Below, piece by piece: positions 3-56,988 of a DNA stretch of 64,000 nucleotides. Both the position numbers and the translations under genes were made by a program. The stretch's first letter is position 1, and every line of letters begins with the position of its first letter. Source of the stretch: a virus (Duplodnaviria; Heunggongvirae; Uroviricota; Caudoviricetes); IMG/VR virus record IMGVR_UViG_3300045988_010208; one strand, 5' to 3'. The notes beneath the pieces are model-generated. The model saw only the letters and a list, made by a program, of their open reading frames with translations. It did no database searches and was not told the DNA's origin.

Positions 3-5797
<5,795 letters not shown>

Positions 5798-40707: not shown

Positions 40708-41600
40708 GAGAGAAAACTATGAAAACTGTTATTGAAGCCGTCGTCACCGCACAAGAGAAATTCTTCCACACAGAAAAATTTAATATCATTCAATTCCCAT
40801 CTGGAGAAATTGGTGGAAACTTCTCTGAAGATTTTGTTAAGTTTACTGAGCGTAATGCTGGTAAGATTGACAATGTTATACTTACTGTACAGGGATATGA
40901 CAAAGATACACTGTTTGCATTAGCTTTGGCTAAGGATGCCGTTGACAGTCTTGTTCCCCAGAAATCAGCGATGAAAACCGTTGTTTTCGGGTTCTTACCA
41001 AATGCTCGATATGACCGCCACATGTTCAAAGGTGATGCAGCAGCACTGAAAGTCTTTGCCAACCTAGTTAATGCAATGGGCTTTGATGCAGTATGTGCTC
41101 TTGACCCTCACAGCAATGTTGCAGAAAACTTATTTAAGTGCTTTCAGAGCATGAAGCAAAAAGATGTGGCAGTACACTTTGCAAGTGACCCACGCATTGA
41201 TTTCTTGGTAGCCCCAGATGCAGGTGCAGCTAAGAAGACTGAAGATGCCGCTAAAGAGGTGGATAAACCATATATCACAATGGCTAAGGTGCGAAACCTT
41301 AAGACTGGAGAAATCACTGGTATGCGAATCCTTGACGATGTTGATTTGACCGATAAAACTGTCATGATTCTTGATGATATCTGTGATGGTGGTCGAACAT
41401 TCGTAGAGGCAGCTAAACACCTACGTGAAGCAGGTGCAAAACGTGTGGAACTCTATGTAACTCATGGTATTTTCTCTAAAGGTGTTGAAAACTTACTTGA
41501 CAATGGTATTGACCATATCTACACTACAAACACTTTAGGTGAAGCTAAAGACCGTGGCTTAACACATTACGGCCAAGTTACTGTAGCAACCATTGATTGA
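40704..41600 (+). CDS. PRPP synthetase-family protein (ribose-phosphate pyrophosphokinase or ADP-ribose pyrophosphokinase homologue)
   Basis: 298 aa; type I phosphoribosyltransferase-fold PRPP-binding loop VMILDDICDGGRTF; directly upstream of the NAMPT-like gene. Confidence 0.75.
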   Translation: MREKTMKTVIEAVVTAQEKFFHTEKFNIIQFPSGEIGGNFSEDFVKFTERNAGKIDNVILTVQGYDKDTLFALALAKDAVDSLVPQKSAMKTVVFGFLPNARYDRHMFKGDAAALKVFANLVNAMGFDAVCALDPHSNVAENLFKCFQSMKQKDVAVHFASDPRIDFLVAPDAGAAKKTEDAAKEVDKPYITMAKVRNLKTGEITGMRILDDVDLTDKTVMILDDICDGGRTFVEAAKHLREAGAKRVELYVTHGIFSKGVENLLDNGIDHIYTTNTLGEAKDRGLTHYGQVTVATID

Positions 41601-41645: not shown

Positions 41646-43427
41646 ATGACTAAATCACTTTATGCAGTACCAGCAGGTTTAAACGCAGATGCTTACAAAT
41701 CTGGTCATGTTTACCAGTATCCTAGTGCAACAGAGTACTTGATGTTCAACCTGACACCACGTAGCGACAAATGGTTTAACAGCCCTTTAGCAATTGATGG
41801 TGTAGTGGCTTTTGGTATTCAACGTTTTGTTAAAGATTACTTGATAGACCACTGGAACGCCACTTTCTTTGAACGTGATAAAAAAGAAGCAATTGACGAA
41901 ATCTTAGAAGTCATGAATGGTGTTCTGGGTAAAGATGCTATCGGTCGAGAGCATTGGGAAGCACTTCACGACTTAGGTTATCTGCCAGTTGAAGTATACG
42001 CTGTAGAAGAAGGCACAGTTGTCCCGATGCGTGTCCCAATGATTGTCTTCCAGAACACTGTTTCAGGTTTCCATTGGGTAGCAGGTTATCTGGAAGATGC
42101 TTTCTCTGCTGAGATTTGGAAGGCTTGCACCATTGCAACTATCGCATTGCACTACAAACGTATCTGTAAGAAGTGGGCTGACCTTACTTGCGACAACGAC
42201 TTACATTTACCTTATCAGTGCCATGACTTTGCTATGCGTGGTATGTCCGGCTTTACTGATGACGCATTTAACGCTGTAGGCCACTTAACCAGCTTTAAAG
42301 GAACTGATAGCTTCCCTGCTGTATACACGGCTAAACGCATCTATGGACAGTCTTACCCAATCTGTGATATTGGTAGCTCTGTACCAGCCACTGAACACTC
42401 TGTAATGTGTGCAAACATTGCTTGGGGAGGTGGTAATGAACTGATTGAAGAAGAAAGACGCTTTAAAGGTGAGTTACAAACCTTCCGTCGTTTCTTAACA
42501 GAAACTTACCCAACTGGTATTGCAAGTATTGTTTCAGATACTTATAACTTCTGGAGAACTGTGTCAGAAATCTTACCAGCACTCCGTAAAGAAATTATGG
42601 AACGTGATGGCAAACTGGTAATTCGTCCTGACTCTGGAGACCCTGTACATATTGTCACAGGTTATAAAGCAATCCACTTAGAGTGTGCTAAGAAGGCTTA
42701 TTATGAGCACCTAAGCAAGCTGGAAGCCAGTGACACAATGTTGAATGCTGTTCTGAACATGAAGCTTGAAAACATCAGCTATGGTATTGCTGGATGGCTA
42801 CTGTCAGAAGGCTACGAAATGGTTGTTGACAGAGAAGACTTTGAAGCTGCTGATACAGTGATGTTGAAAAATGCTTATATGGTTGGTTCTGCAAACGTTG
42901 TAACACGCCCTGTAGCTGAGATTGATGGAGCTATTAAGACACTGTACAACATCTTTGGGGGAACTATTAACTCTAAAGGGTTTAAGGTACTGGATGAGCA
43001 CATCGGCCTTATCTATGGTGACTCTATCACGCTGGAACGTGCAAACGAAATCCTGAAGCGTCTGTATGAAATGGGTTTTGCAAGCTCTAACGTAGTGTTT
43101 GGTGTAGGTTCTTACACTTACCAGTACATGACTCGTGACACCTTTGCATTTGCTGTCAAAGCAACTCTTGCAAGCATTGGTGGTAAAGAGATTATGCTTG
43201 CAAAAGACCCTAAAACAGATAGTGGTGTTAAGAAATCTGCCTTTGGTGGTGTAGCACCTATGTGGGATGGGGATAAGCTGAAAGCTGTAGATGGCTATGG
43301 ATTCCAGAGTTTTGCAGATGCACTTGACCACCCAGCTTGTGCTTTACGTTTAGTCTTTAGCGACTCTGAGCAGTTCGGTTACACAACTCTTGGTGATATT
43401 CGAAATAATATTGACAAGCAGCTTTAA
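41646..43427 (+). CDS. nadV: nicotinamide phosphoribosyltransferase-family protein (NAMPT/NadV-like)
   Basis: 593 aa; size and position match phage NadV-type genes paired with a Prs homologue; family call is by recognition, no motif verified. Confidence 0.7.
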   Translation: MTKSLYAVPAGLNADAYKSGHVYQYPSATEYLMFNLTPRSDKWFNSPLAIDGVVAFGIQRFVKDYLIDHWNATFFERDKKEAIDEILEVMNGVLGKDAIGREHWEALHDLGYLPVEVYAVEEGTVVPMRVPMIVFQNTVSGFHWVAGYLEDAFSAEIWKACTIATIALHYKRICKKWADLTCDNDLHLPYQCHDFAMRGMSGFTDDAFNAVGHLTSFKGTDSFPAVYTAKRIYGQSYPICDIGSSVPATEHSVMCANIAWGGGNELIEEERRFKGELQTFRRFLTETYPTGIASIVSDTYNFWRTVSEILPALRKEIMERDGKLVIRPDSGDPVHIVTGYKAIHLECAKKAYYEHLSKLEASDTMLNAVLNMKLENISYGIAGWLLSEGYEMVVDREDFEAADTVMLKNAYMVGSANVVTRPVAEIDGAIKTLYNIFGGTINSKGFKVLDEHIGLIYGDSITLERANEILKRLYEMGFASSNVVFGVGSYTYQYMTRDTFAFAVKATLASIGGKEIMLAKDPKTDSGVKKSAFGGVAPMWDGDKLKAVDGYGFQSFADALDHPACALRLVFSDSEQFGYTTLGDIRNNIDKQL

Positions 43428-47657: not shown

Positions 47658-48206
47658 ATGAAGAAATTGATTCTAGGTTTGTGCTTAATGTTTACAGCAC
47701 ACTTATCTTATGCAGTTGACTGCCCAGAGCTATCAATTAGCCAAAAAGTAAACATGTTAAAAGCTTACCAGTATGGTGAGAATAACATGGGTAAAGGTTG
47801 GGGTATCACTCTAGCTGCTATAGCCTTACAAGAGTCAGAGTTAGGTCTGAAGGTAGAGAATAAAAAGACGCATGATTATGGTATTTTCCAGAATCACTTG
47901 AAGACTGTTGTAAAGCGTAACAAAATCAGTCCTAATGTGGCTAAAAAGAAACTCTTAAAAGACTTTGACTATGCTGCGAAGGAAACGCACAAAGAGCTTG
48001 AGTTTTGGACAAAGGTACATGGTCAGCCAAAGTCAAAGAAGACTTTACAAAAAGTTTTAGCATCATATAATGCTGGGTATTCGTACAGAATCCCTAAAGC
48101 TAAGAAATATTCTCAAGATGTTTATAACAATATGAAAGTAATTGCTCAATGTGAATTTGCAACAAACATTTCTAAGGTAGACCATGAAAAAATTAAGAAA
48201 GTCTGA
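47658..48206 (+). CDS. secreted lytic transglycosylase (SLT domain)
   Basis: 182 aa; signal peptide MKKLILGLCLMFTAHLSYA; SLT motifs LQESELG (catalytic E-S), YGIFQ, SYNAGYSY. Confidence 0.6.
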   Translation: MKKLILGLCLMFTAHLSYAVDCPELSISQKVNMLKAYQYGENNMGKGWGITLAAIALQESELGLKVENKKTHDYGIFQNHLKTVVKRNKISPNVAKKKLLKDFDYAAKETHKELEFWTKVHGQPKSKKTLQKVLASYNAGYSYRIPKAKKYSQDVYNNMKVIAQCEFATNISKVDHEKIKKV

Positions 48207-48879
48207 TGAAGTATTGTGCCATGCTTATGACTTACATCCTCATGAGTTAGGACTTGATTCCTGTGTATGGACTCCAGAACAGTGCAGGGATTTTGAAGAC
48301 ACCGCAAGAGAAGTTGTATGTTCACTTGAAGAGTTCCACACATCAGAACCAATTGTGAACGTTGTGGACAAAGAGACTGGGCAATCAATAGGTGTAAAAC
48401 GTGATAGTTTAGTCATAATCAATAAAGACCTTATAGAAAAAGGGAATCTCATCTTAGCAGATATTGATGGTGTTCTTACAAATTTTAATCACGAAGATTG
48501 TTCAACGGAATTGACTGATGGCTCATTTTCACAGTACACTAATCTTCTTGACTCTGTAAGAGCAAAACCAACGTATGTTTTCAATATCATTGATGCAATT
48601 GCTAATCATGCTGCCGTTGGACTCTTGACAGCGAGAGGCGAATCTCAGAGAATACCCACTGAGATGTTTTTAAGGCATAACACGGAGCATGACTACATGC
48701 TTTTTATGCGTGGTTTTGGGACTAACTCTATAAGTGCAGAAAGTTTGAAAGTGAGGATGATTCAGTCTTGCATCCTGCCTTACTTTAATATAGTATGTTT
48801 TATAGAAGACACAGAGAAGAATGTGCAGAAGGTGAACAGAATCCTTCCACACATTAAAACCATGTTAGTTAAACATTGA
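48184..48879 (+). CDS. putative HAD-superfamily phosphatase
   Basis: 231 aa; HAD motif I ILADIDGVLT, motif II-like GLLTARGE, motif IV-like FIEDTEKN. Confidence 0.4.
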   Translation: MKKLRKSDEVLCHAYDLHPHELGLDSCVWTPEQCRDFEDTAREVVCSLEEFHTSEPIVNVVDKETGQSIGVKRDSLVIINKDLIEKGNLILADIDGVLTNFNHEDCSTELTDGSFSQYTNLLDSVRAKPTYVFNIIDAIANHAAVGLLTARGESQRIPTEMFLRHNTEHDYMLFMRGFGTNSISAESLKVRMIQSCILPYFNIVCFIEDTEKNVQKVNRILPHIKTMLVKH

Positions 48880-49365: not shown

Positions 49366-49388
49366 AGGCTCCTTCGGGAGCCTTTTTC
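49366..49388 (+). terminator. intrinsic terminator
   Basis: GGCUCC-UUCG-GGAGCC hairpin followed by UUUUU. Confidence 0.7.
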
Positions 49389-50185: not shown

Positions 50186-50512
50186 ATGCAGATTAATGGA
50201 AGAGATTTTGTAGCTGTTTACTACGAGAAAGGTAAAGAAGTTGGCGTAGCACAAGTATCTTATGGCAATGGTAAGTGGCTATATGGAACAATCGCAGTAG
50301 TAGGCACAAGAAGTGATACAAAAACCTTTAAAGATTGTGTTGACCTTCTTGAAGAATCCATCCAGAATCATTGGTGTCTGATATGGATGACTGACAATGA
50401 AGTGATAGAACGTTTCAAAAAGATTGATATCAACATTGACAGTATTGAGCATGTTGATTTATATGAACTAACTGAGAAGGTAAACTATGAAAGTAATACT
50501 AGCCAGAGATAA
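50186..50512 (+). CDS. hypothetical protein
   Basis: 108-aa ORF. Confidence 0.35.
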   Translation: MQINGRDFVAVYYEKGKEVGVAQVSYGNGKWLYGTIAVVGTRSDTKTFKDCVDLLEESIQNHWCLIWMTDNEVIERFKKIDINIDSIEHVDLYELTEKVNYESNTSQR

Positions 50513-50714
50513 AAAGACACGGAAAATTATCCGGTCAGCAGTATCCATTGGAAGAAATGAAGTGATTCCTTTTACAGCAAATGATGTGATAATCTACAGG
50601 AAAAAATTAACATTCAGTTATTGCTTACGTGGCTTTATCTCCCAGCCATTGGAAGACTTTAAAAGTCGTTGTGGTAAAGGTATCATCATTCAAGAGGCAA
50701 TTATCAATGGCTGA
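50487..50714 (+). CDS. hypothetical protein
   Basis: 75-aa ORF. Confidence 0.3.
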   Translation: MKVILARDKKTRKIIRSAVSIGRNEVIPFTANDVIIYRKKLTFSYCLRGFISQPLEDFKSRCGKGIIIQEAIING

Positions 50715-50907
50715 CTTCTGCAAAGACTGTTCCATCGAAATGTTCGGACGTGATACAGGTGACTTAAAAGGTCTCATCACTGAAGATGACTTTAAAGCTG
50801 GCTATGCAATGCCAGTAATCTGTGAAGGTTGTGGGTGTATCTGGGTAGACCACGAAGGGCAACGTGTAAAACCTTCAGAAGATAAAGAATCTTGGGAGAG
50901 ATGTTAA
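50707..50907 (+). CDS. small Cys-rich protein
   Basis: ORF 50629-50907 trimmed to internal ATG overlapping the upstream stop; CKDC...CEGCGC cysteine clusters. Confidence 0.35.
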   Translation: MADFCKDCSIEMFGRDTGDLKGLITEDDFKAGYAMPVICEGCGCIWVDHEGQRVKPSEDKESWERC

Positions 50908-51693
50908 ATGGGTATTGTAAAAATTATCAATGGCGATATCTTTGACGCATTTGATAAAGGTAAGTTTGACATCATTGGTCATGGTTGCAACTGTATGAAT
51001 TTCATGGGTGCAGGTATTGCAGCAACTATTTCTAAGCGTTATCCAAAAGTGTATGATACTGATACAGAAGTTTACCTGTTTGCAGGTGGCATTCGTCACA
51101 AACCCTGTGAAAATTTACTAGGCAATTTCTCTGTAGCACGTTTAAAACAAGGTCGTATAGCTAACCTTTACACCCAACTTCATACTGGTAAAGATGCCCG
51201 ATACAGTGCTTTAGAGTCATCTTTGAAACAGCTTAACAGATACTGTGAAGTTAACCAGTTGAAGAAAGTTGGCCTGCCTATGATTGGTGCAGGTATCGGT
51301 GGACTTGACCCTCAAGCTGTCACAGTTATCATCAATCAGGTGATGAAGAGCGTAGATGTTTACCTGTATGTCTACGAGGCAGAGATGTACAACAAGTTAC
51401 ACTCAGGTTGGAAGAACTACTGTGAACCAGAATACTTTGCGGGTGTAGTAGTGTTCACAGACAACACAGTTACCCTCTTCAGACGAAGAAAAGGTAAGAT
51501 ACATCAAAGTAACCCTCCGGTTGAAAAGATGTCTCTAAGTAACGCTCTAGTTACCCACCTGTCGAAGAGCAATCACAGAATTGCAGTAACATTTGGCAGT
51601 GATGCAGATACATATATCTATGCAAGAACTGATGAGGATGTTGAGGAAATTTTCTCTTCACCAGAAGTTACCTTCTTAGACGCAAAGAACTAA
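50908..51693 (+). CDS. macro-domain-like protein (putative ADP-ribose binding/processing)
   Basis: 261 aa; N-terminal IINGDIF...IIGHGCNCMNFMGAGIAATISKRYP pattern typical of macro/Appr-1-p-type domains; C-terminal 100 aa unassigned. Confidence 0.5.
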   Translation: MGIVKIINGDIFDAFDKGKFDIIGHGCNCMNFMGAGIAATISKRYPKVYDTDTEVYLFAGGIRHKPCENLLGNFSVARLKQGRIANLYTQLHTGKDARYSALESSLKQLNRYCEVNQLKKVGLPMIGAGIGGLDPQAVTVIINQVMKSVDVYLYVYEAEMYNKLHSGWKNYCEPEYFAGVVVFTDNTVTLFRRRKGKIHQSNPPVEKMSLSNALVTHLSKSNHRIAVTFGSDADTYIYARTDEDVEEIFSSPEVTFLDAKN

Positions 51694-51724
51694 GAAACTC
51701 TGTAGAATATTCACAATAGATTAA

Positions 51725-51768
51725 GCCTTTCTTATCTGGTAAATTTTTCAGGTAAGGAGGGCTTTTTT
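51725..51768 (+). terminator. terminator-like hairpin
   Basis: GCCUUUCUU ... AAGGAGGGC stem (two G-U pairs, long loop) followed by UUUUUU. Confidence 0.4.
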
Positions 51769-51775
51769 ATTTCAG

Positions 51776-51945
51776 AATTGTGCAGGTAGAGTTCTGTAGA
51801 GAAATCTGTAGAGAGAATTTTGAACTCCAAAGGGAAAATCCATTTTCAAGTTGTGCAGGTAATCTCCAAAGAGCTTTTTCATTTTCAAAACGTGCAGAGA
51901 AAAATCAGGTCGGGCAAGAAAAATCATTTTAGAATTGTGCAGGTA
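51776..51945 (+). promoter_or_regulatory. four spaced copies of motif AAAATC-ATTTTCA-RAATTGTGCAGGTA
   Basis: Copies near 51776-51788, 51849-51861, 51889-51900 (degenerate) and 51933-51945, in an ORF-free 420-bp region between the macro-domain gene and the small-gene array. Confidence 0.5.
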
Positions 51946-52121
51946 GGTGGGTGTAGGTGGGGATGTCACCATTTCTCACAAGGCTACCACATCCGAAAAG
52001 AAAAGTCAACAGAAAAATTTGTAGCGGATTGAAAAATAATTCTTGATTTGTGTTCTGTTTTGTGGTATTCGCGCGCACCCGTTTCATTGCATTTTTGCCA
52101 AAAATATTTTTAAAATTTTTC

Positions 52122-52180
52122 TTGACTATTCGAACGGGGTTATCTAGTATTTGCATCAACGGGGAGGAAATGACTTCCCC
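52122..52180 (+). promoter_or_regulatory. type-1 promoter-stem-loop cassette (copy 1)
   Basis: TTGACT -17 nt- TAGTAT, then hairpin GGGGAGG-AAATGA-CTTCCCC at the predicted transcript 5' end, then conserved leader to ATG 52214; AT-rich UP-like tract upstream. Confidence 0.65.
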
Positions 52181-52213
52181 ACTAAATAAACCCTTAAACT
52201 AGGAGATTCTAAA

Positions 52214-52597
52214 ATGGCATATCGTGCACCTAAATTCATCAATAAAGACAATTTCCGCAATGCACTGGAAAAATCACTTGATGAGAATTTTACAGGTCAG
52301 GTTATTGTTGTACACGCATTCAATTTTAAATATGACGTAAATGGTAACAGGATTAACCATTACACGGCAACCATGTTAGACGGTACTCTGTCAAGTGAAA
52401 AAGCCGTACTGAATGCACTTGCTGGACGTGGTAAAAACCTGATAAAATGCAATAAGAGACGTTATCAGGGCGGCGCATATGGTTACGATGATGCTGTTTA
52501 TCATCTTGAGAATATGGGCTATTCAGTGGAAAAAGCTGGAGTGTCTCAAATAATCGGTAGTGATGGTTATGTAACAATCTTCAAAATTAACGAATAA
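52214..52597 (+). CDS. hypothetical early protein
   Basis: 127-aa ORF with AGGAG RBS, preceded by a type-1 cassette. Confidence 0.5.
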   Translation: MAYRAPKFINKDNFRNALEKSLDENFTGQVIVVHAFNFKYDVNGNRINHYTATMLDGTLSSEKAVLNALAGRGKNLIKCNKRRYQGGAYGYDDAVYHLENMGYSVEKAGVSQIIGSDGYVTIFKINE

Positions 52598-52602
52598 AGT
52601 AC

Positions 52603-52638
52603 TTTACAAGGGGCTTATAGTTCGATAAAGTAAGCCCC
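52603..52638 (+). promoter_or_regulatory. type-2 stem-loop cassette (copy 1)
   Basis: TTTACA then hairpin GGGGCTTA-N13-TAAGCCCC, then conserved leader AGATAAAGAGCTTTACCACTAAATCCTAAA. Confidence 0.55.
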
Positions 52639-52683
52639 AGATAAAGAGCTTTACCACTAAATCCTAAATTGGAGAACTTAAAA

Positions 52684-52941
52684 ATGGCTATTATCAAAAA
52701 CGTTGTAATTCCTGCAAAAACTCGTGATGACGCTCGCGTTATGGCTAAAAAGTTATGCGGGAAAGTGGTTGACAACGGAAAACAATCTAATGTAAGGTGG
52801 GGCGTGAAGGCTGATAAACATTTAACCTTAAAACGCAGTTCAAATAACCTTTTTAAAGGTGTAAAAACACTCGGTAAAGTGAACGTATTCACTAAACAAG
52901 GTTACAAAATGCACTTATCATTAACTGGCAATTTAACCTGA
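52684..52941 (+). CDS. hypothetical early protein
   Basis: ORF-track start at 52669 is a TTG codon; ATG at 52684 (MAIIKNVV..) has a GGAG RBS at correct spacing; 85 aa. Confidence 0.5.
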   Translation: MAIIKNVVIPAKTRDDARVMAKKLCGKVVDNGKQSNVRWGVKADKHLTLKRSSNNLFKGVKTLGKVNVFTKQGYKMHLSLTGNLT

Positions 52942-52949
52942 TAAAGTAC

Positions 52950-52985
52950 TTTACAAGGGGCTTAAAAGTTGATATCTTAAGCCCC
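52950..52985 (+). promoter_or_regulatory. type-2 stem-loop cassette (copy 2)
   Basis: TTTACA + hairpin GGGGCTTAA-N11-TTAAGCCCC + conserved leader up to ATG 53030. Confidence 0.55.
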
Positions 52986-53029
52986 AGATAAAGAGCTTTA
53001 CCACTAAATCCTAAACTGGAGATTCAAAA

Positions 53030-53542
53030 ATGAAAACTGTAGACGCTACCTTTGAAGTTGTAAAAGAAAAATTCACCGTTATCTATGAAGCGGTAAATTG
53101 CTACGAAGCAAGCCATAATCTTGATAATTGGAAGTTTACAGATGACCATCAAGGCGGCGTGACTATTAAAAACCCTAACTGTCAGCGTAACGATTTTAAA
53201 TATGCAATCCCTTTAAATTATAGCCTTAAACAACTTTCTAGTGACTATGCAAAACAAGGCCGGGAAAACCCATCAAAACAGGCTTACATCAGCTTACAGA
53301 AAGAACTAGAAAGAGATTTAGAAGCTTCAGAATACAACCTTGCCGCGAAAGTTATCGATGCAAATGGTCAAACAATTTTAGACAGTTTTTATCTAGGATA
53401 TGCCTTTGATTGGTGCTATAGTGACGGTGATGATTTAGAGGATAGACTAAAAGAAGAGGTGAGTAATTCAGACGCAGAAACTGAAGTATTAGAACGTTTG
53501 GAATCATTAAAAGACTCAGTGATGAATATCTTTAAGAACTAA
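53030..53542 (+). CDS. hypothetical early protein (acidic)
   Basis: 170-aa ORF after a type-2 cassette. Confidence 0.5.
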   Translation: MKTVDATFEVVKEKFTVIYEAVNCYEASHNLDNWKFTDDHQGGVTIKNPNCQRNDFKYAIPLNYSLKQLSSDYAKQGRENPSKQAYISLQKELERDLEASEYNLAAKVIDANGQTILDSFYLGYAFDWCYSDGDDLEDRLKEEVSNSDAETEVLERLESLKDSVMNIFKN

Positions 53543-53551
53543 ATAGATTTC

Positions 53552-53586
53552 TTTACACGGGGTTATCAAGCTGATAAGATAGCCCC
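53552..53586 (+). promoter_or_regulatory. type-2 stem-loop cassette (copy 3, stem with compensatory change)
   Basis: TTTACA + hairpin GGGGTTATC-N10-GATAGCCCC (U-G replaces C-G of other copies) + leader to ATG 53631. Confidence 0.55.
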
Positions 53587-53630
53587 AGATAAAGAGCTTT
53601 ACTAACAACCTTAAACTAGGAGATTCTAAA

Positions 53631-53927
53631 ATGAAATTATCAAATAAAGTCCGTGAAAATCTAAGCAAGTTACTTAACAAAATTGATTTTATTGAGACAT
53701 CAAGGAATAGTCATGATGTTATGGAATGGTTACACGGAAAAATAAAAGGCCGTCGTGTAGTGATTTGCTTATGGAATAGTTGCAGGGAGTATAAAAAACC
53801 TGTATTGCAGGTCAATATTTATGATGATACTTTTAAAAGCCCTGTAAAGTCTAAAAGCGATTTATTAGAATCTTATGAGATAACTGTAAGTGGCAAAGTA
53901 TCACGTAAAGAGGAAACACCATGTTAA
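53631..53927 (+). CDS. hypothetical early protein
   Basis: 98-aa ORF after a type-2 cassette. Confidence 0.5.
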   Translation: MKLSNKVRENLSKLLNKIDFIETSRNSHDVMEWLHGKIKGRRVVICLWNSCREYKKPVLQVNIYDDTFKSPVKSKSDLLESYEITVSGKVSRKEETPC

Positions 53928-54253
53928 TGACTGGCATCACTGCAATCATTGCCATTCTCGCGCTTTATAAGGCATATAAAGCCTATAATCTAGCAAATAA
54001 GGCAATCACACAGCAGGTTAGCAATAACCTTGTAGAAAGCTTTCTAGGGCGCCTCAGTGATGAGCAAATAAAGCGGCTAGAGATGAGCTTCAGATATAAA
54101 GCGAAAACCTATCAGATAAGTGACATCTTCAAAGATGATTTTCAGTTAGTCGATGATTATAATTCACTGATAAATGCTTTAAATATCAGTGACTTGAAAG
54201 ACTATTACGCTGTAATTGTCCAAGAATTGAGCAAACGAAAACAAAGTGTTTGA
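53921..54253 (+). CDS. hypothetical early membrane protein
   Basis: 110 aa; N-terminal hydrophobic helix MLMTGITAIIAILALY; ATG overlaps upstream stop. Confidence 0.45.
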   Translation: MLMTGITAIIAILALYKAYKAYNLANKAITQQVSNNLVESFLGRLSDEQIKRLEMSFRYKAKTYQISDIFKDDFQLVDDYNSLINALNISDLKDYYAVIVQELSKRKQSV

Positions 54254-54309
54254 CACTGGTTTTTAGATAGATTAAATTACACATCAACGGGGAGGGAATG
54301 ACCTTCCCC
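54250..54309 (+). promoter_or_regulatory. type-1 promoter-stem-loop cassette (copy 2)
   Basis: TTGACA -17 nt- TAAATT, then hairpin GGGGAGGG-AATGA-CCTTCCCC, then leader to ATG 54345. Confidence 0.65.
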
Positions 54310-54344
54310 ACTAAGTAAAGTCCTTAAACTAGGAGATTCTAAAA

Positions 54345-54548
54345 ATGGCTATTATTAACGGCTTACACATTGAAGCTACACACATCAAAGATATTAAAGT
54401 TGGTGATGTAGTTCTCTTTCACGGCGTAGAAAAAACCGTCACGGCGAAAGATATCAAAGAGGATTCTTTCATGGGTAGGACTCTTTTCGGTGATTCTTAT
54501 TGCTTAGGTTACCTTGCAGTTTTAAAAGTTGTCAAAATTAACAAATAA
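54345..54548 (+). CDS. hypothetical early protein
   Basis: 67-aa ORF, AGGAG RBS. Confidence 0.5.
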   Translation: MAIINGLHIEATHIKDIKVGDVVLFHGVEKTVTAKDIKEDSFMGRTLFGDSYCLGYLAVLKVVKINK

Positions 54549-54553
54549 AGTAC

Positions 54554-54589
54554 TTTACAAGGGGCTTAAAAGTTGTTACCTTAAGCCCC
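54554..54589 (+). promoter_or_regulatory. type-2 stem-loop cassette (copy 4)
   Basis: TTTACA + hairpin GGGGCTTAA-N11-TTAAGCCCC + leader to ATG 54635. Confidence 0.55.
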
Positions 54590-54634
54590 AGATAAAGAGC
54601 TTTACCACTAAATCCTAAACTGGAGATTCAAAAA

Positions 54635-55177
54635 ATGAAATGCTTTCACGGTACTACTCAAGAAAACTTTATCAACCTGATTAATAATGGTGATAAGCCA
54701 TCAGGTGCATGGAATTGTTCGGATATGGATGGCAATTTTTACGTATACCCAGAAAATAAAATTTATGGTGACGATGAGGAAGAGATAGTATCCGAAGGTA
54801 TTCAACAGGCGTTAGGAAATGCCACTATCACGGCAGCTTTCCAGATGAAAACCCAAAACATTGTTATCTTGGAACTTGATATTCCAGAGGATGAATTAAA
54901 TGATGATTATTCTTGTGATAATATGTCTGGCGTAGCAAGTTTTACAGAATACTTCGATTTAAATTGGATTAAAAAGGTTTACGTAACCGAGTTTAATGCG
55001 ATGTTTTCGCCTTTTTGTCTTCCTTCATTGGATAACCCGAATTTAAACTATCTTGATGAGTCTCTGGAACTTCTTGCTAAAAGCGTTCAACAGTCGGACA
55101 GTATTCAGGTTTTTTGTGACATCATGGATACACTGGCAGGAAACATCGCAGAAGAGGATTTAAAGAGCTTTTTTTAA
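54635..55177 (+). CDS. hypothetical early protein (acidic)
   Basis: 180-aa ORF after a type-2 cassette. Confidence 0.5.
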   Translation: MKCFHGTTQENFINLINNGDKPSGAWNCSDMDGNFYVYPENKIYGDDEEEIVSEGIQQALGNATITAAFQMKTQNIVILELDIPEDELNDDYSCDNMSGVASFTEYFDLNWIKKVYVTEFNAMFSPFCLPSLDNPNLNYLDESLELLAKSVQQSDSIQVFCDIMDTLAGNIAEEDLKSFF

Positions 55178-55243
55178 AAACCTATGTAATCACCTTATAA
55201 ACACTAATCAGCCCCTTGTAGGGGCTTTTAGAGGACTTAAATC

Positions 55244-55477
55244 ATGCTTACAACCGTTTATCTCATCCTCTCAATTTGTAATGGTCATTCATGCGATTTT
55301 AAAGGGCTTGAAGAGTTTACAGGAAGTAAAGAAAATGCCATTCAGGTGTGCCAGATAGCAAGACAAGACTACCCCGCCAGTGACGACATTCAATGCTACT
55401 TTAAAACAGAAGATGACGACGGAATCTATTTCGACAGTGTTGATGGTCAATATGAAATTATCATTGAAAAAGACTAG
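55244..55477 (+). CDS. hypothetical early protein
   Basis: 77-aa ORF; upstream hairpin-like AGCCCCTTGTAGGGGCT. Confidence 0.45.
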   Translation: MLTTVYLILSICNGHSCDFKGLEEFTGSKENAIQVCQIARQDYPASDDIQCYFKTEDDDGIYFDSVDGQYEIIIEKD

Positions 55478-55534
55478 ACAAGCCTGATAAAAGTCTGTAA
55501 ATTGTCAATCAACGGGGAGGGAATGACCTTCCCC
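55475..55534 (+). promoter_or_regulatory. type-1 promoter-stem-loop cassette (copy 3)
   Basis: TAGACA (overlapping the stop of 55244-55477) -17 nt- TAAATT, then hairpin GGGGAGGG-AATGA-CCTTCCCC, leader to ATG 55569. Confidence 0.6.
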
Positions 55535-55568
55535 ACTACATAAAACCCTTAAACTAGGAGATTCAAAA

Positions 55569-55910
55569 ATGGCTTATGTAACCGTAATTACCGATAAAGC
55601 TGACTCATCTTGGTCAACTCAAGTAAGTGATAAGATGACACCTATGCAGTGCCTAAAATACTTTGAGCAATGGAATAAAGGCGAGGATGTAAGCCCCTTC
55701 CAAGTGATGCAGATTATCCATACAGATAACGAAGGGAAGAAAACAACTCTGAATAGTGAGTACTACGCAAGCCGTTTTGAAACGAGAAGTAAAACAATGA
55801 AGCTCTTACGTGAATCCGGTTATCCTCATATTGCCGCTCTAATCTGGGATGACCTGTTAAAAAGTCAGCGTATCAGCTATGTAAAACCTGAAAAAATATT
55901 CATCAGTTAA
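55569..55910 (+). CDS. hypothetical early protein
   Basis: 113-aa ORF after a type-1 cassette. Confidence 0.5.
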   Translation: MAYVTVITDKADSSWSTQVSDKMTPMQCLKYFEQWNKGEDVSPFQVMQIIHTDNEGKKTTLNSEYYASRFETRSKTMKLLRESGYPHIAALIWDDLLKSQRISYVKPEKIFIS

Positions 55911-56039
55911 TCAATAACTTATAAAAAACTTTTAAAAAAGTGTTGACAATACCTCTTGACATTGGTAACTTTGTTCGAGGGGGTTTATCTAAAAGGGATT
56001 CACTTAAAAGATTCTTTATAGATAAGCTTAAAAAATTGC

Positions 56040-56095
56040 TTGCAATCAGCTATCAAAACAAGTAAATTACTAATCAACGGGAGGGATAACCTCCC
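56040..56095 (+). promoter_or_regulatory. type-1 promoter-stem-loop cassette (copy 4, shortened stem)
   Basis: TTGCAA -17 nt- TAAATT, then hairpin GGGAGG-GATAA-CCTCCC (one base pair lost from both arms), leader to ATG 56130; extra TTGACA motifs at 55940-55980. Confidence 0.6.
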
Positions 56096-56129
56096 CACTA
56101 AATAAAATCCTTAAACTAGGAGAGTCAAA

Positions 56130-56660
56130 ATGAACAAGTTTAAAGCTATCAACTACATTCGTTCAAATGCTGTAATGTCTAAGCCTGTTAAAGACACATA
56201 TGAGTTCCGTTGTAATGGGGTACACTTTGCAACCATCACCAAATCAGAAAACGGGGCTTATTATGTACATCGTCGTAATGTTGCAACCGTTGTAGTCTCT
56301 CACTTTATGCAATCTGTAGCGGAACTATTGCCGTTATTCTTAGAAATTTATCTAGATGAGTGTAAAAACGTTCGTAACCACGTTAAAAACCTTTTAAACG
56401 GTTATAAAATGGCTTATGAACGTTCTATCAAGTCCTTAAACAAGTTCTATAAAGCCCCTGTAAATACTGTTTCAATGGCCTACAGTGTAAGCGGTGAGTT
56501 GGTTAGCCTCTTCGAAGTGGAAGAAATCGAACTCTATGACTCACGTCCTAGCGGTTACTCTAAGACTCTAGGAGAAGGTTTAACCTTCAATATCAAGAAC
56601 TTAGAAAAAACTTTAAAAGATATTGAAAAAGATATTGACGAAACAATCAAAAGTCTGTAA
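56130..56660 (+). CDS. hypothetical early protein
   Basis: 176-aa ORF; its last codons overlap the next cassette promoter. Confidence 0.5.
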   Translation: MNKFKAINYIRSNAVMSKPVKDTYEFRCNGVHFATITKSENGAYYVHRRNVATVVVSHFMQSVAELLPLFLEIYLDECKNVRNHVKNLLNGYKMAYERSIKSLNKFYKAPVNTVSMAYSVSGELVSLFEVEEIELYDSRPSGYSKTLGEGLTFNIKNLEKTLKDIEKDIDETIKSL

Positions 56661-56694
56661 ATTGTCAATCAACGGGGAGGGAATGACCTTCCCC
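56635..56694 (+). promoter_or_regulatory. type-1 promoter-stem-loop cassette (copy 5)
   Basis: TTGACG -17 nt- TAAATT (overlapping stop of 56130-56660), then hairpin GGGGAGGG-AATGA-CCTTCCCC, leader to ATG 56740. Confidence 0.6.
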
Positions 56695-56739
56695 ACTAAA
56701 TAAAACCATTAATCAACTTCCTAAACTGGAGATTCTAAA

Positions 56740-56988
56740 ATGGCTACTATCCGCGCAACTGTTAACGAATTTGGCTTCTACTCTCTGGACGTTAAATTTG
56801 ACCTTGTAGGTACTGATAACGCCTTTGAAATGGTGAAAGGCCTTATCAGCCAGACCATCAGTGACTACAACCCCTCTGATGAATTCTGGAAAGAAACAAA
56901 ACAGGAAGCTCTCAAAGAGGGTTATACATACCACTACTGGGGTGAAAAAATTGTCTCCCTGTACTACGACAAAGAAGGCACTAACTAA
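56740..56988 (+). CDS. hypothetical early protein
   Basis: 82-aa ORF, last gene of the plus-strand array. Confidence 0.5.
   Translation: MATIRATVNEFGFYSLDVKFDLVGTDNAFEMVKGLISQTISDYNPSDEFWKETKQEALKEGYTYHYWGEKIVSLYYDKEGTN

Follow-up and report, generated by a model that had tools for sequence, protein, structure and literature searches.

A two-domain macro protein of Felix O1-like phages: a candidate counter-defence enzyme of the T4 AdfM type with a fast-diverging orphan C-terminal domain

Within the last year, one family of phage macro domains, the Poa1p-like family, has been given two counter-defence jobs: AdfM acts against the DarTG2 defence, and Adpp acts against the aRES defence through the NARP1 pathway. 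In phage T4, transposon insertions in Tk.4 and its clean knockout were found to sensitise the phage to DarTG2, and the gene was renamed AdfM, for anti-DarT factor Macrodomain (bioRxiv 10.1101/2025.11.20.689424). A DarG-like AdfM was described in PhiKZ, whose gp104 strips from DNA in vitro the ADP-ribose attached by DarT2, an activity impaired in the N23A mutant (PMC13309987). Adpp is a Poa1p-like macro protein present inside some NARP1 operons; it dephosphorylates ADP-ribose-1''-phosphate (ADPR-1''P), which the RES-domain NADase of the aRES defence produces, and this removal of the phosphate lets NARP1 rebuild NAD+. It was defined by a position at most two genes away from NARP1, and the Adpp of Vibrio phage Gary (KNV71_gp137) was shown to be needed to overcome aRES (bioRxiv 10.64898/2026.01.28.702374). 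NARP1 itself was first described in phage Bas63, a close relative of the phage studied here, whose Adps and Namat had previously served as queries for this pathway, with Bas63_0080 named among them (bioRxiv 10.1101/2024.02.11.579819). Here we analyse the viral DNA stretch IMGVR_UViG_3300045988_010208, 64,000 nucleotides long and called the window hereafter, and more precisely one of its genes, whose 261-residue product represents a two-domain form of the Poa1p-like phage macro family to which AdfM and Adpp belong.

The window belongs to a Felix O1-like myovirus, a Felixounavirus about 87 kb in size, and its DNA is 92-93% identical to that of about 200 sequenced phages. The open reading frame of the macro-protein gene, which holds the amino-acid strings cited in the initial annotation of this DNA, is the orthologue of bas63_0095 of phage Bas63/JohannRWettstein, where it is annotated as a "putative phosphatase" (93.5% amino acid identity). 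Its product matches PHROG 335 (E = 1.5e-114), and full-length copies of it are present in about 258 phage records; a homologous macro domain was found by tblastn in about 2,800 phage records, T4 Tk.4 included.

The initial annotation had read a macro domain into the N-terminal 150 or so residues, and this assignment held. The Pfam Macro profile (PF01661) is matched with 30 bits for a gathering cut-off of 22 (E = 5.3e-7) by residues 25-141, which cover positions 2-117 of its 118. A profile built from 21 homologues and searched against the sequences of the PDB matched solely TARG1/OARD1 (E = 3e-16), SCO6735 (5e3b, among the best matches with E = 1.1e-15), BT1257, Poa1p and two DarG macrodomains. 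The AlphaFold2 model computed from the 21-homologue alignment is a confident one (predicted local distance difference test, pLDDT, 88.7; predicted template modelling score, pTM, 0.87). The comparison with solved macro structures that had been suggested as a check gave DarG, TARG1 and Poa1p as best matches: Foldseek placed first the DarG of Thermus aquaticus in complex with ADP-ribose (5m3e; E = 2.5e-10, template modelling (TM) score of 0.82 normalised to the target), followed by TARG1, the DarG of Mycobacterium tuberculosis and Poa1p (probability 1.00, TM scores of 0.75-0.86 with the same normalisation). On the evidence of this model, residues 1-157 are a genuine macro domain, predicted to adopt the three-layer α/β/α fold, with a resemblance far beyond chance.

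The Gly-rich ADP-ribose-binding pattern noticed in the initial annotation corresponds to both loops of the fold, M33-G-A-G-I-A and I126-G-A-G-I-G-G, which are (nearly) invariant in the 21 homologues and align with loops 1 and 2 of TARG1, DarG and Poa1p. The segments invariant in these homologues are H25-G-C-N28-C, M33-G-A-G-I-A, N86-L-Y-T-Q90 and P124-x-I-G-A-G-I-G-G. Within the first of them, Asn28 aligns with the conserved Asn of DarG and with N23 of PhiKZ AdfM, and His25 aligns with His23 of Poa1p, whose HSCNC motif nearly equals the HGCNC of the window protein. By its sequence, the macro domain is placed as a Poa1p-like member of the TARG1/ALC1 branch. It is not a DarG, since it scores 54.4 bits against the NCBIfam antitoxin_DarG equivalog (NF048014), for a cut-off of 250, and matches only the macro part of that profile (positions 3-153 of 338). 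The DarG model of PADLOC (PDLC02990) is matched with E = 7e-15 over positions 14-146 of 329 only; for comparison, this model gives E = 1.3e-9 with T4 AdfM and 4e-39 with PhiKZ gp104.

The closest characterised relative of the window protein is T4 Tk.4/AdfM, to which it aligns over the whole macro domain with 34% identity (79 bits, E = 3e-23). Both proteins present the motifs HGCNC, MGxGxA, NLYTQ and PxIGAGIG as well as a Gln at the position of the DarG/TARG1 lysine, and the window phage, like T4, is a lytic myovirus of enterobacteria. They differ in their architecture: T4 AdfM is a single domain of 155 residues, whereas the window protein carries an added C-terminal domain of 104 residues that neither T4 AdfM nor about 2,500 other phage homologues possess. 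Between PhiKZ AdfM and the window protein the identity is only 25% (E = 1e-5); the catalytic Asn is kept, but the FPTK motif, whose Lys PhiKZ AdfM preserves, is absent from the window protein, which has NLYTQ instead. The DarG macrodomains (5m31/5m3e from T. aquaticus and 5m3i from M. tuberculosis) are the best structural matches, with TM scores of 0.79-0.82 on the target, and the two Gly-rich loops are common to DarG, PhiKZ AdfM and the window protein, as is the conserved Asn, which is N28 in the window protein and N23 in PhiKZ. The window protein also resembles DarG in its layout, a macro domain followed by a C-terminal domain. Unlike DarG, it lacks the Lys motif FPTK, its C-terminal domain is dissimilar to the DarT-binding half and there is no adjacent DarT: no match to an ADP-ribosyltransferase (ART) or to DarT was found among the neighbours of the macro gene (small phage genes, spanin, Pnk-like gene and rIIA/B). 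Among cellular proteins, yeast Poa1p (6lfq-6lfu) has the HxCNC motif in common with the window protein, including the aligned His, and SCO6735 of S. coelicolor is like it in belonging to the TARG1/ALC1 branch without the catalytic Lys/Asp pair. Both are single-domain proteins with 19-24% identity to the window protein, and their roles, connected with a tRNA-splicing by-product for Poa1p and with the regulation of antibiotic production for SCO6735, differ from that considered here.

The C-terminal 100 or so residues had been left unassigned, and no relative outside their own family was detected for them, by sequence among representative proteins or by fold among solved and viral structures. The models predict for residues 158-261 a linker helix, six β-strands and one helix. 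Over 21 window-type alleles, the ratio of non-synonymous to synonymous substitution rates (dN/dS) is 0.19 for this domain versus 0.067 for the macro domain, which corresponds to purifying selection, and the value of 0.19 argues that the C-terminal domain is real. Pfam gave only a sub-threshold match to PH (E = 0.13), and an exhaustive hidden Markov model search of 1.84 billion representative proteins returned the family itself and two truncated fragments of it only, with no DarG. Two other matches of that search, a eukaryotic retrotransposon polyprotein and a WSC-repeat protein (P0027 and P0028), were rejected as spurious sums of weak repeated matches. The fold search against solved and viral structures found no relative, the viral library giving only the SUSP2 orthologue, and the C-terminal half of the DarG models of NCBIfam and PADLOC was not matched.

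Across the Ounavirinae, divergence in this C-terminal domain is much faster than in the macro domain. Relatives that are 63-68% identical overall (P0002-P0008, for example that of Shigella phage Sf17) retain 72-76% identity in the macro domain and 46-54% in the C-terminal domain; for a second Felixounavirus allele (P0009), these values fall to 48% and 23%, and for the Kolesnikvirus orthologue from Erwinia phage Panisse the macro domain is 43% identical and C-terminal similarity is undetectable. The Panisse protein (positions 2498-3280 of locus L028) has 260 residues, in effect the same total length, and ends in an extension of about 100 residues; no homology of this extension to that of the window protein could be detected (hhalign probability of 0.1%).

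The macro gene also undergoes allele replacement. In one Felixounavirus contig, the flanking proteins are 95-100% identical to those of the window and the macro protein only 39%, the DNA similarity being lost about 140 nucleotides into the macro gene. The second allele, which we call allele B, is carried by 13 sequenced Felixounaviruses (BPS17L1, Si3, finno, ECML-1 and others) and the window-type allele by about 200. Directly upstream, the 66-residue Cys-rich protein stays 98-100% conserved across 25 loci, even where the macro allele has been swapped. The 75-residue gene located two genes upstream is a second recombination cassette, with two alleles only about 25% identical, and among 25 Felixounavirus loci all four combinations of its alleles with those of the macro gene occur, for which reason it was rejected as a partner co-inherited with the macro allele. 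Since this cassette segregates independently, the macro gene forms a mosaic module in its own right, and its polymorphism is what would be expected if its product had to face host defences that vary. A separate observation concerns Escherichia phage VpaE1_ev035 (L026, LR699048.1), a derivative by its name, which carries allele B (95.7% identical to P0009), and vB_EcoM-VpaE1 (KM657822.1), which carries a window-type macro allele (41.9% identical to P0009); the two sequences suggest an exchange of the macro locus by recombination within the VpaE1 lineage.

With the fold, the family placement, the motifs, the purifying selection on both domains and the allele replacement established, we tentatively favour, with a confidence that stops a little short of even, the view that the product of this gene is a counter-defence enzyme of the same type as T4 AdfM (Tk.4). 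We prefer it because T4 AdfM is the closest characterised homologue and has all the invariant motifs in common with the window protein, because the gene lies 15 genes away from NARP1 and outside its operon, and because both the motifs and a rough neighbour-joining tree group the Ounavirinae proteins with the T4 type (HGCNC / NLYTQ / GAGIGG), apart from the NARP1-associated Adpp clades (HQ[C/A]NC / N[L/V]YGQ / G[C/A]GL[A/G]G). In 875 of 1000 resamplings of the alignment columns, the score of the window protein with T4 AdfM exceeded its score with Gary Adpp. Further support comes from the best structural match, a DarG bound to ADP-ribose, together with the match to the PADLOC DarG model; from the alignment of Asn28 with N23 of PhiKZ AdfM, the mutation of which lowers the de-ADP-ribosylation of DNA; and from the swapping of a 39%-identical allele between near-identical flanks, as expected in an arms race. 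The guess of the initial annotation that the protein strips defence-imposed ADP-ribose in the manner of DarG appears reasonable, with a precedent in the homologous T4 AdfM.

In the mechanism that we propose, the macro domain would bind the ADP-ribose moiety and hydrolyse the bond at the C1'' of the ribose. The most likely substrate would be the ADP-ribose put by the host DarT2 on thymidines of single-stranded phage DNA, and by clearing these replication-blocking adducts the enzyme would allow the phage to escape DarTG2. Catalysis would proceed without the Lys of DarG and TARG1, probably through Asn28, His25 and Gln90 instead, and the fused C-terminal domain may be a targeting or specificity module binding either single-stranded DNA or a host defence protein.

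Several points weigh against an assignment to the AdfM type. The anti-DarTG2 role was demonstrated in T4 only and genetically only, its enzymology being inferred (bioRxiv 10.1101/2025.11.20.689424). The signature of the Lys-dependent hydrolases is missing from the window protein, in which the position of TARG1 K84 and DarG K80 is occupied by Gln90 and that of TARG1 Asp125 by Gly131 (for the definitions of the catalytic Lys/Asp motifs, including the TK-G-G of DarG, see PMC8120803); SCO6735, from the same branch and without this catalytic pair, is still active and removes ADP-ribose from glutamate (PMC8120803). In the Kolesnikvirus orthologue of Panisse, the otherwise invariant His25 is replaced by a Gln (AQGCNC). 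Gary Adpp and T4 AdfM are 35% identical (E = 2e-23), a similarity comparable to that between T4 AdfM and the window protein, and because T4 AdfM is equally similar to both, the AdfM and Adpp activities are inseparable by sequence alone. The neighbour-joining tree relies on 151 columns at about 30% identity, and one NARP1-associated macro protein, that of Acinetobacter phage phiAbaA1, bears the T4-like HGCNC/xYTQ signature. NARP1 is present in the window phage itself, and an Adpp would be of use to this pathway. Finally, the literature yielded no experiment on the window protein or on any Felixounavirus orthologue.

The presence of NARP1 corrects the initial annotation, which had spoken of a PRPP-synthetase/NAMPT pair: this pair was misnamed, since the two enzymes are 98.6% identical to bas63_0079 and 98.8% identical to bas63_0080, the Bas63 query enzymes, and are Adps and Namat. 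It also raises the most serious rival explanation, possible in our opinion though unlikely, according to which the macro protein is an ADPR-1''P phosphatase like Adpp. In that case, ADPR-1''P made by aRES would be converted to ADP-ribose and rebuilt to NAD+ by the phage's own NARP1, the macro protein being encoded away from that operon (NARP1-AP in trans). Judged by its sequence, a Poa1p-like macro enzyme could plausibly be the third NARP1 enzyme in the same genome. Gary Adpp (whose sequence was taken from the supplement of bioRxiv 10.64898/2026.01.28.702374), with its demonstrated dephosphorylation of ADPR-1''P needed against aRES, is homologous to the window protein (28% identity, E = 4e-15); both macro proteins are Poa1p-like and, like Gary, the window phage encodes Adps and Namat, so that NARP1 and a homologue of Gary Adpp are found in one genome. 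The near identity of HGCNC to the Poa1p motif, the aligned His25 and the signature of the phiAbaA1 protein count on the same side, as does the grouping of Adps, Namat and the macro gene on one strand within 11 kb.

The position of the gene speaks the other way, since it lies 15 genes downstream of Namat (0080 to 0095 in the Bas63 numbering), or about 7.5 kb, when the definition of Adpp allows two. Gary Adpp is inside the NARP1 operon and has no C-terminal domain, whereas the window gene is outside it, and their signatures differ (HQCNC / NVYGQ / GCGLAGG in Gary versus HGCNC / NLYTQ / GAGIGG in the window protein), so that motifs and tree place the latter with T4 AdfM and not in the Adpp clades. 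In T4, which is not known to carry NARP1, the macro protein is of the same type and has DarTG2 resistance as its reported role. It is not obvious why a phosphatase of a small molecule should need a hypervariable extra domain. No Felixounavirus is present in the Adpp supplementary table (bioRxiv 10.64898/2026.01.28.702374).

The AdfM-type and Adpp-type readings are not mutually exclusive and can coexist: as both substrates carry their leaving group on the C1'' of the ribose, one active site might serve both. The "two separate functions" that the initial annotation had proposed against NAD/ADP-ribose-based immunity may then be one extended pathway, because the neighbouring pair is NARP1 and because an Adpp of the Poa1p-like family feeds NARP1. 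A bolder combination, which we consider improbable, would make the C-terminal domain a fast-diversifying specificity or inhibitor module that binds DarT2 or the RES NADase, or targets single-stranded DNA, next to a single Poa1p-like active site serving both the reversal of DarT2 and the dephosphorylation of ADPR-1''P for NARP1. If this were true, the protein would be a two-pronged antitoxin mimic built by the phage, analogous but not homologous to the macro plus DarT-binding layout of DarG, and would bridge on its own two NAD/ADP-ribose counter-defence pathways.

Other substrates were also considered. A general mono-ADP-ribosylhydrolase acting on protein or RNA, for example on mRNA modified by the ART of a CmdTAC-type system or on glutamate-linked ADP-ribose as SCO6735 does, seems quite unlikely to us. 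TARG1 is the top sequence match, SCO6735 matches nearly as well and works on glutamate-ADP-ribose without the same Lys/Asp pair, and macro domains are known to be promiscuous; however, such an activity has been demonstrated for no phage homologue, the two characterised ones acting on DNA adducts or on ADPR-1''P, and no ADP-ribosyltransferase partner was identified near the macro gene. It is very unlikely that the protein is a sponge or a hydrolase of ADP-ribose-derived immune signals, such as the 2'/3'cADPR or His-ADPR of Thoeris: macro domains can bind His-ADPR, as in ThsA, but this has not been reported for phage macro proteins of the Poa1p-like family, with which neither a preprint on Migulavirinae and Thoeris II nor the paper on the viral AlphaFold database deals, and invariant catalytic-type residues under strong purifying selection fit an enzyme with a defined C1'' substrate. 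Finally, a housekeeping Appr-1''-p phosphatase clearing a by-product of phage RNA repair is hardly credible, for although many records are annotated as phosphatase or Poa1p-like and a polynucleotide-kinase-phosphatase-like gene lies close by, no 2'-phosphotransferase of the Tpt1/KptA type, the source of Appr>p, was found among the scanned neighbours, and one would not expect such an enzyme to swap alleles or to have an added hypervariable domain.

The features of the locus are collected in Table 1. The macro gene is the last of a tightly packed string of genes on the + strand, which begins after a terminator at 49366-49383 and comprises in order the i-/o-spanin genes, four small genes without known function and the macro gene. 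The stop codon of the Cys-rich gene (50905-50907) directly adjoins the macro ATG, and the two genes look translationally coupled from their sequence. The terminator that follows the macro gene and closes its transcription unit is predicted to fold with -25.4 kcal/mol (z = -7.0), and 0 of 200 shuffled sequences were equally stable. Upstream of the string and on the same strand are found the Pnk-phosphatase-like gene, an SLT-like gene, rIIB, rIIA and the PRPS-like/NAMPT-like pair; the gene of the Pnk-like protein is flanked by the SLT-like gene and the spanins, and the protein may by its sequence be an RNA or DNA end-repair enzyme. A search of the window for an aRES inhibitor of the aRad1 type found none.

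Table 1. Positions in the window of the macro-protein gene, its parts and its neighbours
Feature	Position	Strand	Description
Adps	40719..41600	+	PRPS-like ADPR-pyrophosphate synthetase, first NARP1 enzyme; Pfam Pribosyltran, Pribosyl_synth
Namat	41646..43427	+	NAMPT-like nicotinamide ADPR-transferase, second NARP1 enzyme; Pfam NAPRTase, NAMPT_N
Pnk-phosphatase-like gene	48184-48879	+	231 aa; PHROG 3970 'polynucleotide kinase', E = 4e-134; no Pfam match
75-aa gene	50487-50714		PHROG 6082, no known function; two genes upstream of macro gene; second recombination cassette
66-aa Cys-rich gene	50707..50907	+	CxxC...CxxC, possibly zinc ribbon; PHROG 2210; directly upstream of macro gene
Ribosome-binding site GGGAGAG	50893..50899	+	8 nt 5' of macro ATG; read from sequence
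Macro-protein gene	50908..51693	+	Complete ATG-initiated open reading frame, 261 aa, two domains
Macro domain, residues 1-157	50908..51378	+	Pfam, PDB profile search, Foldseek, alignments, dN/dS 0.067
C-terminal orphan domain, residues 158-261	51379..51690	+	Lineage-restricted, fast-evolving
Intrinsic terminator	51723..51764	+	Hairpin (17 bp) then T-run; terminator scan and RNA fold

Beyond the macro-gene terminator, two kinds of repeats were noticed. Three copies of a direct repeat of 21-28 nucleotides, ATTTyAGAATTGTGCAGGTAg, are spaced by 73 and 84 nucleotides at 51769-51946, within an apparently non-coding gap of 520 bp 3' of the terminator in which no Rfam or tRNA match was found. Further on, at 52162-56745, a module of 50-115 nucleotides is repeated before each small gene, made of a GC-rich hairpin (GGGGAGGnnnnnnnCCCC or AGCCCC...) followed by CTTAAACTAGGAGATTCTAAAATG; its sequence resembles a reiterated promoter or 5'-untranslated-region cassette of an early-gene array.

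What is new here is an orphan hypervariable C-terminal domain, the swapping of alleles, and the finding that NARP1-bearing phages of the Bas63 type also carry a macro protein of the T4-AdfM type outside the operon. The 35% identity between T4 AdfM and Gary Adpp, to which differing functions have been assigned, raises the question of a dual activity in this family, and the Felixounavirus protein stands between the two jobs, with the signature of T4 AdfM and yet in phages of the Bas63 type which provided the NARP1 queries. With bas63_0095 it can therefore be asked cleanly whether one promiscuous C1''-hydrolase performs both activities or whether they can be separated. Its lineage-specific, fast-diverging and allele-swapped C-terminal domain is a candidate for a new specificity module. 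Since Felix O1-type phages are common in the biocontrol of Salmonella and E. coli, knowing which defences they neutralise has practical value.

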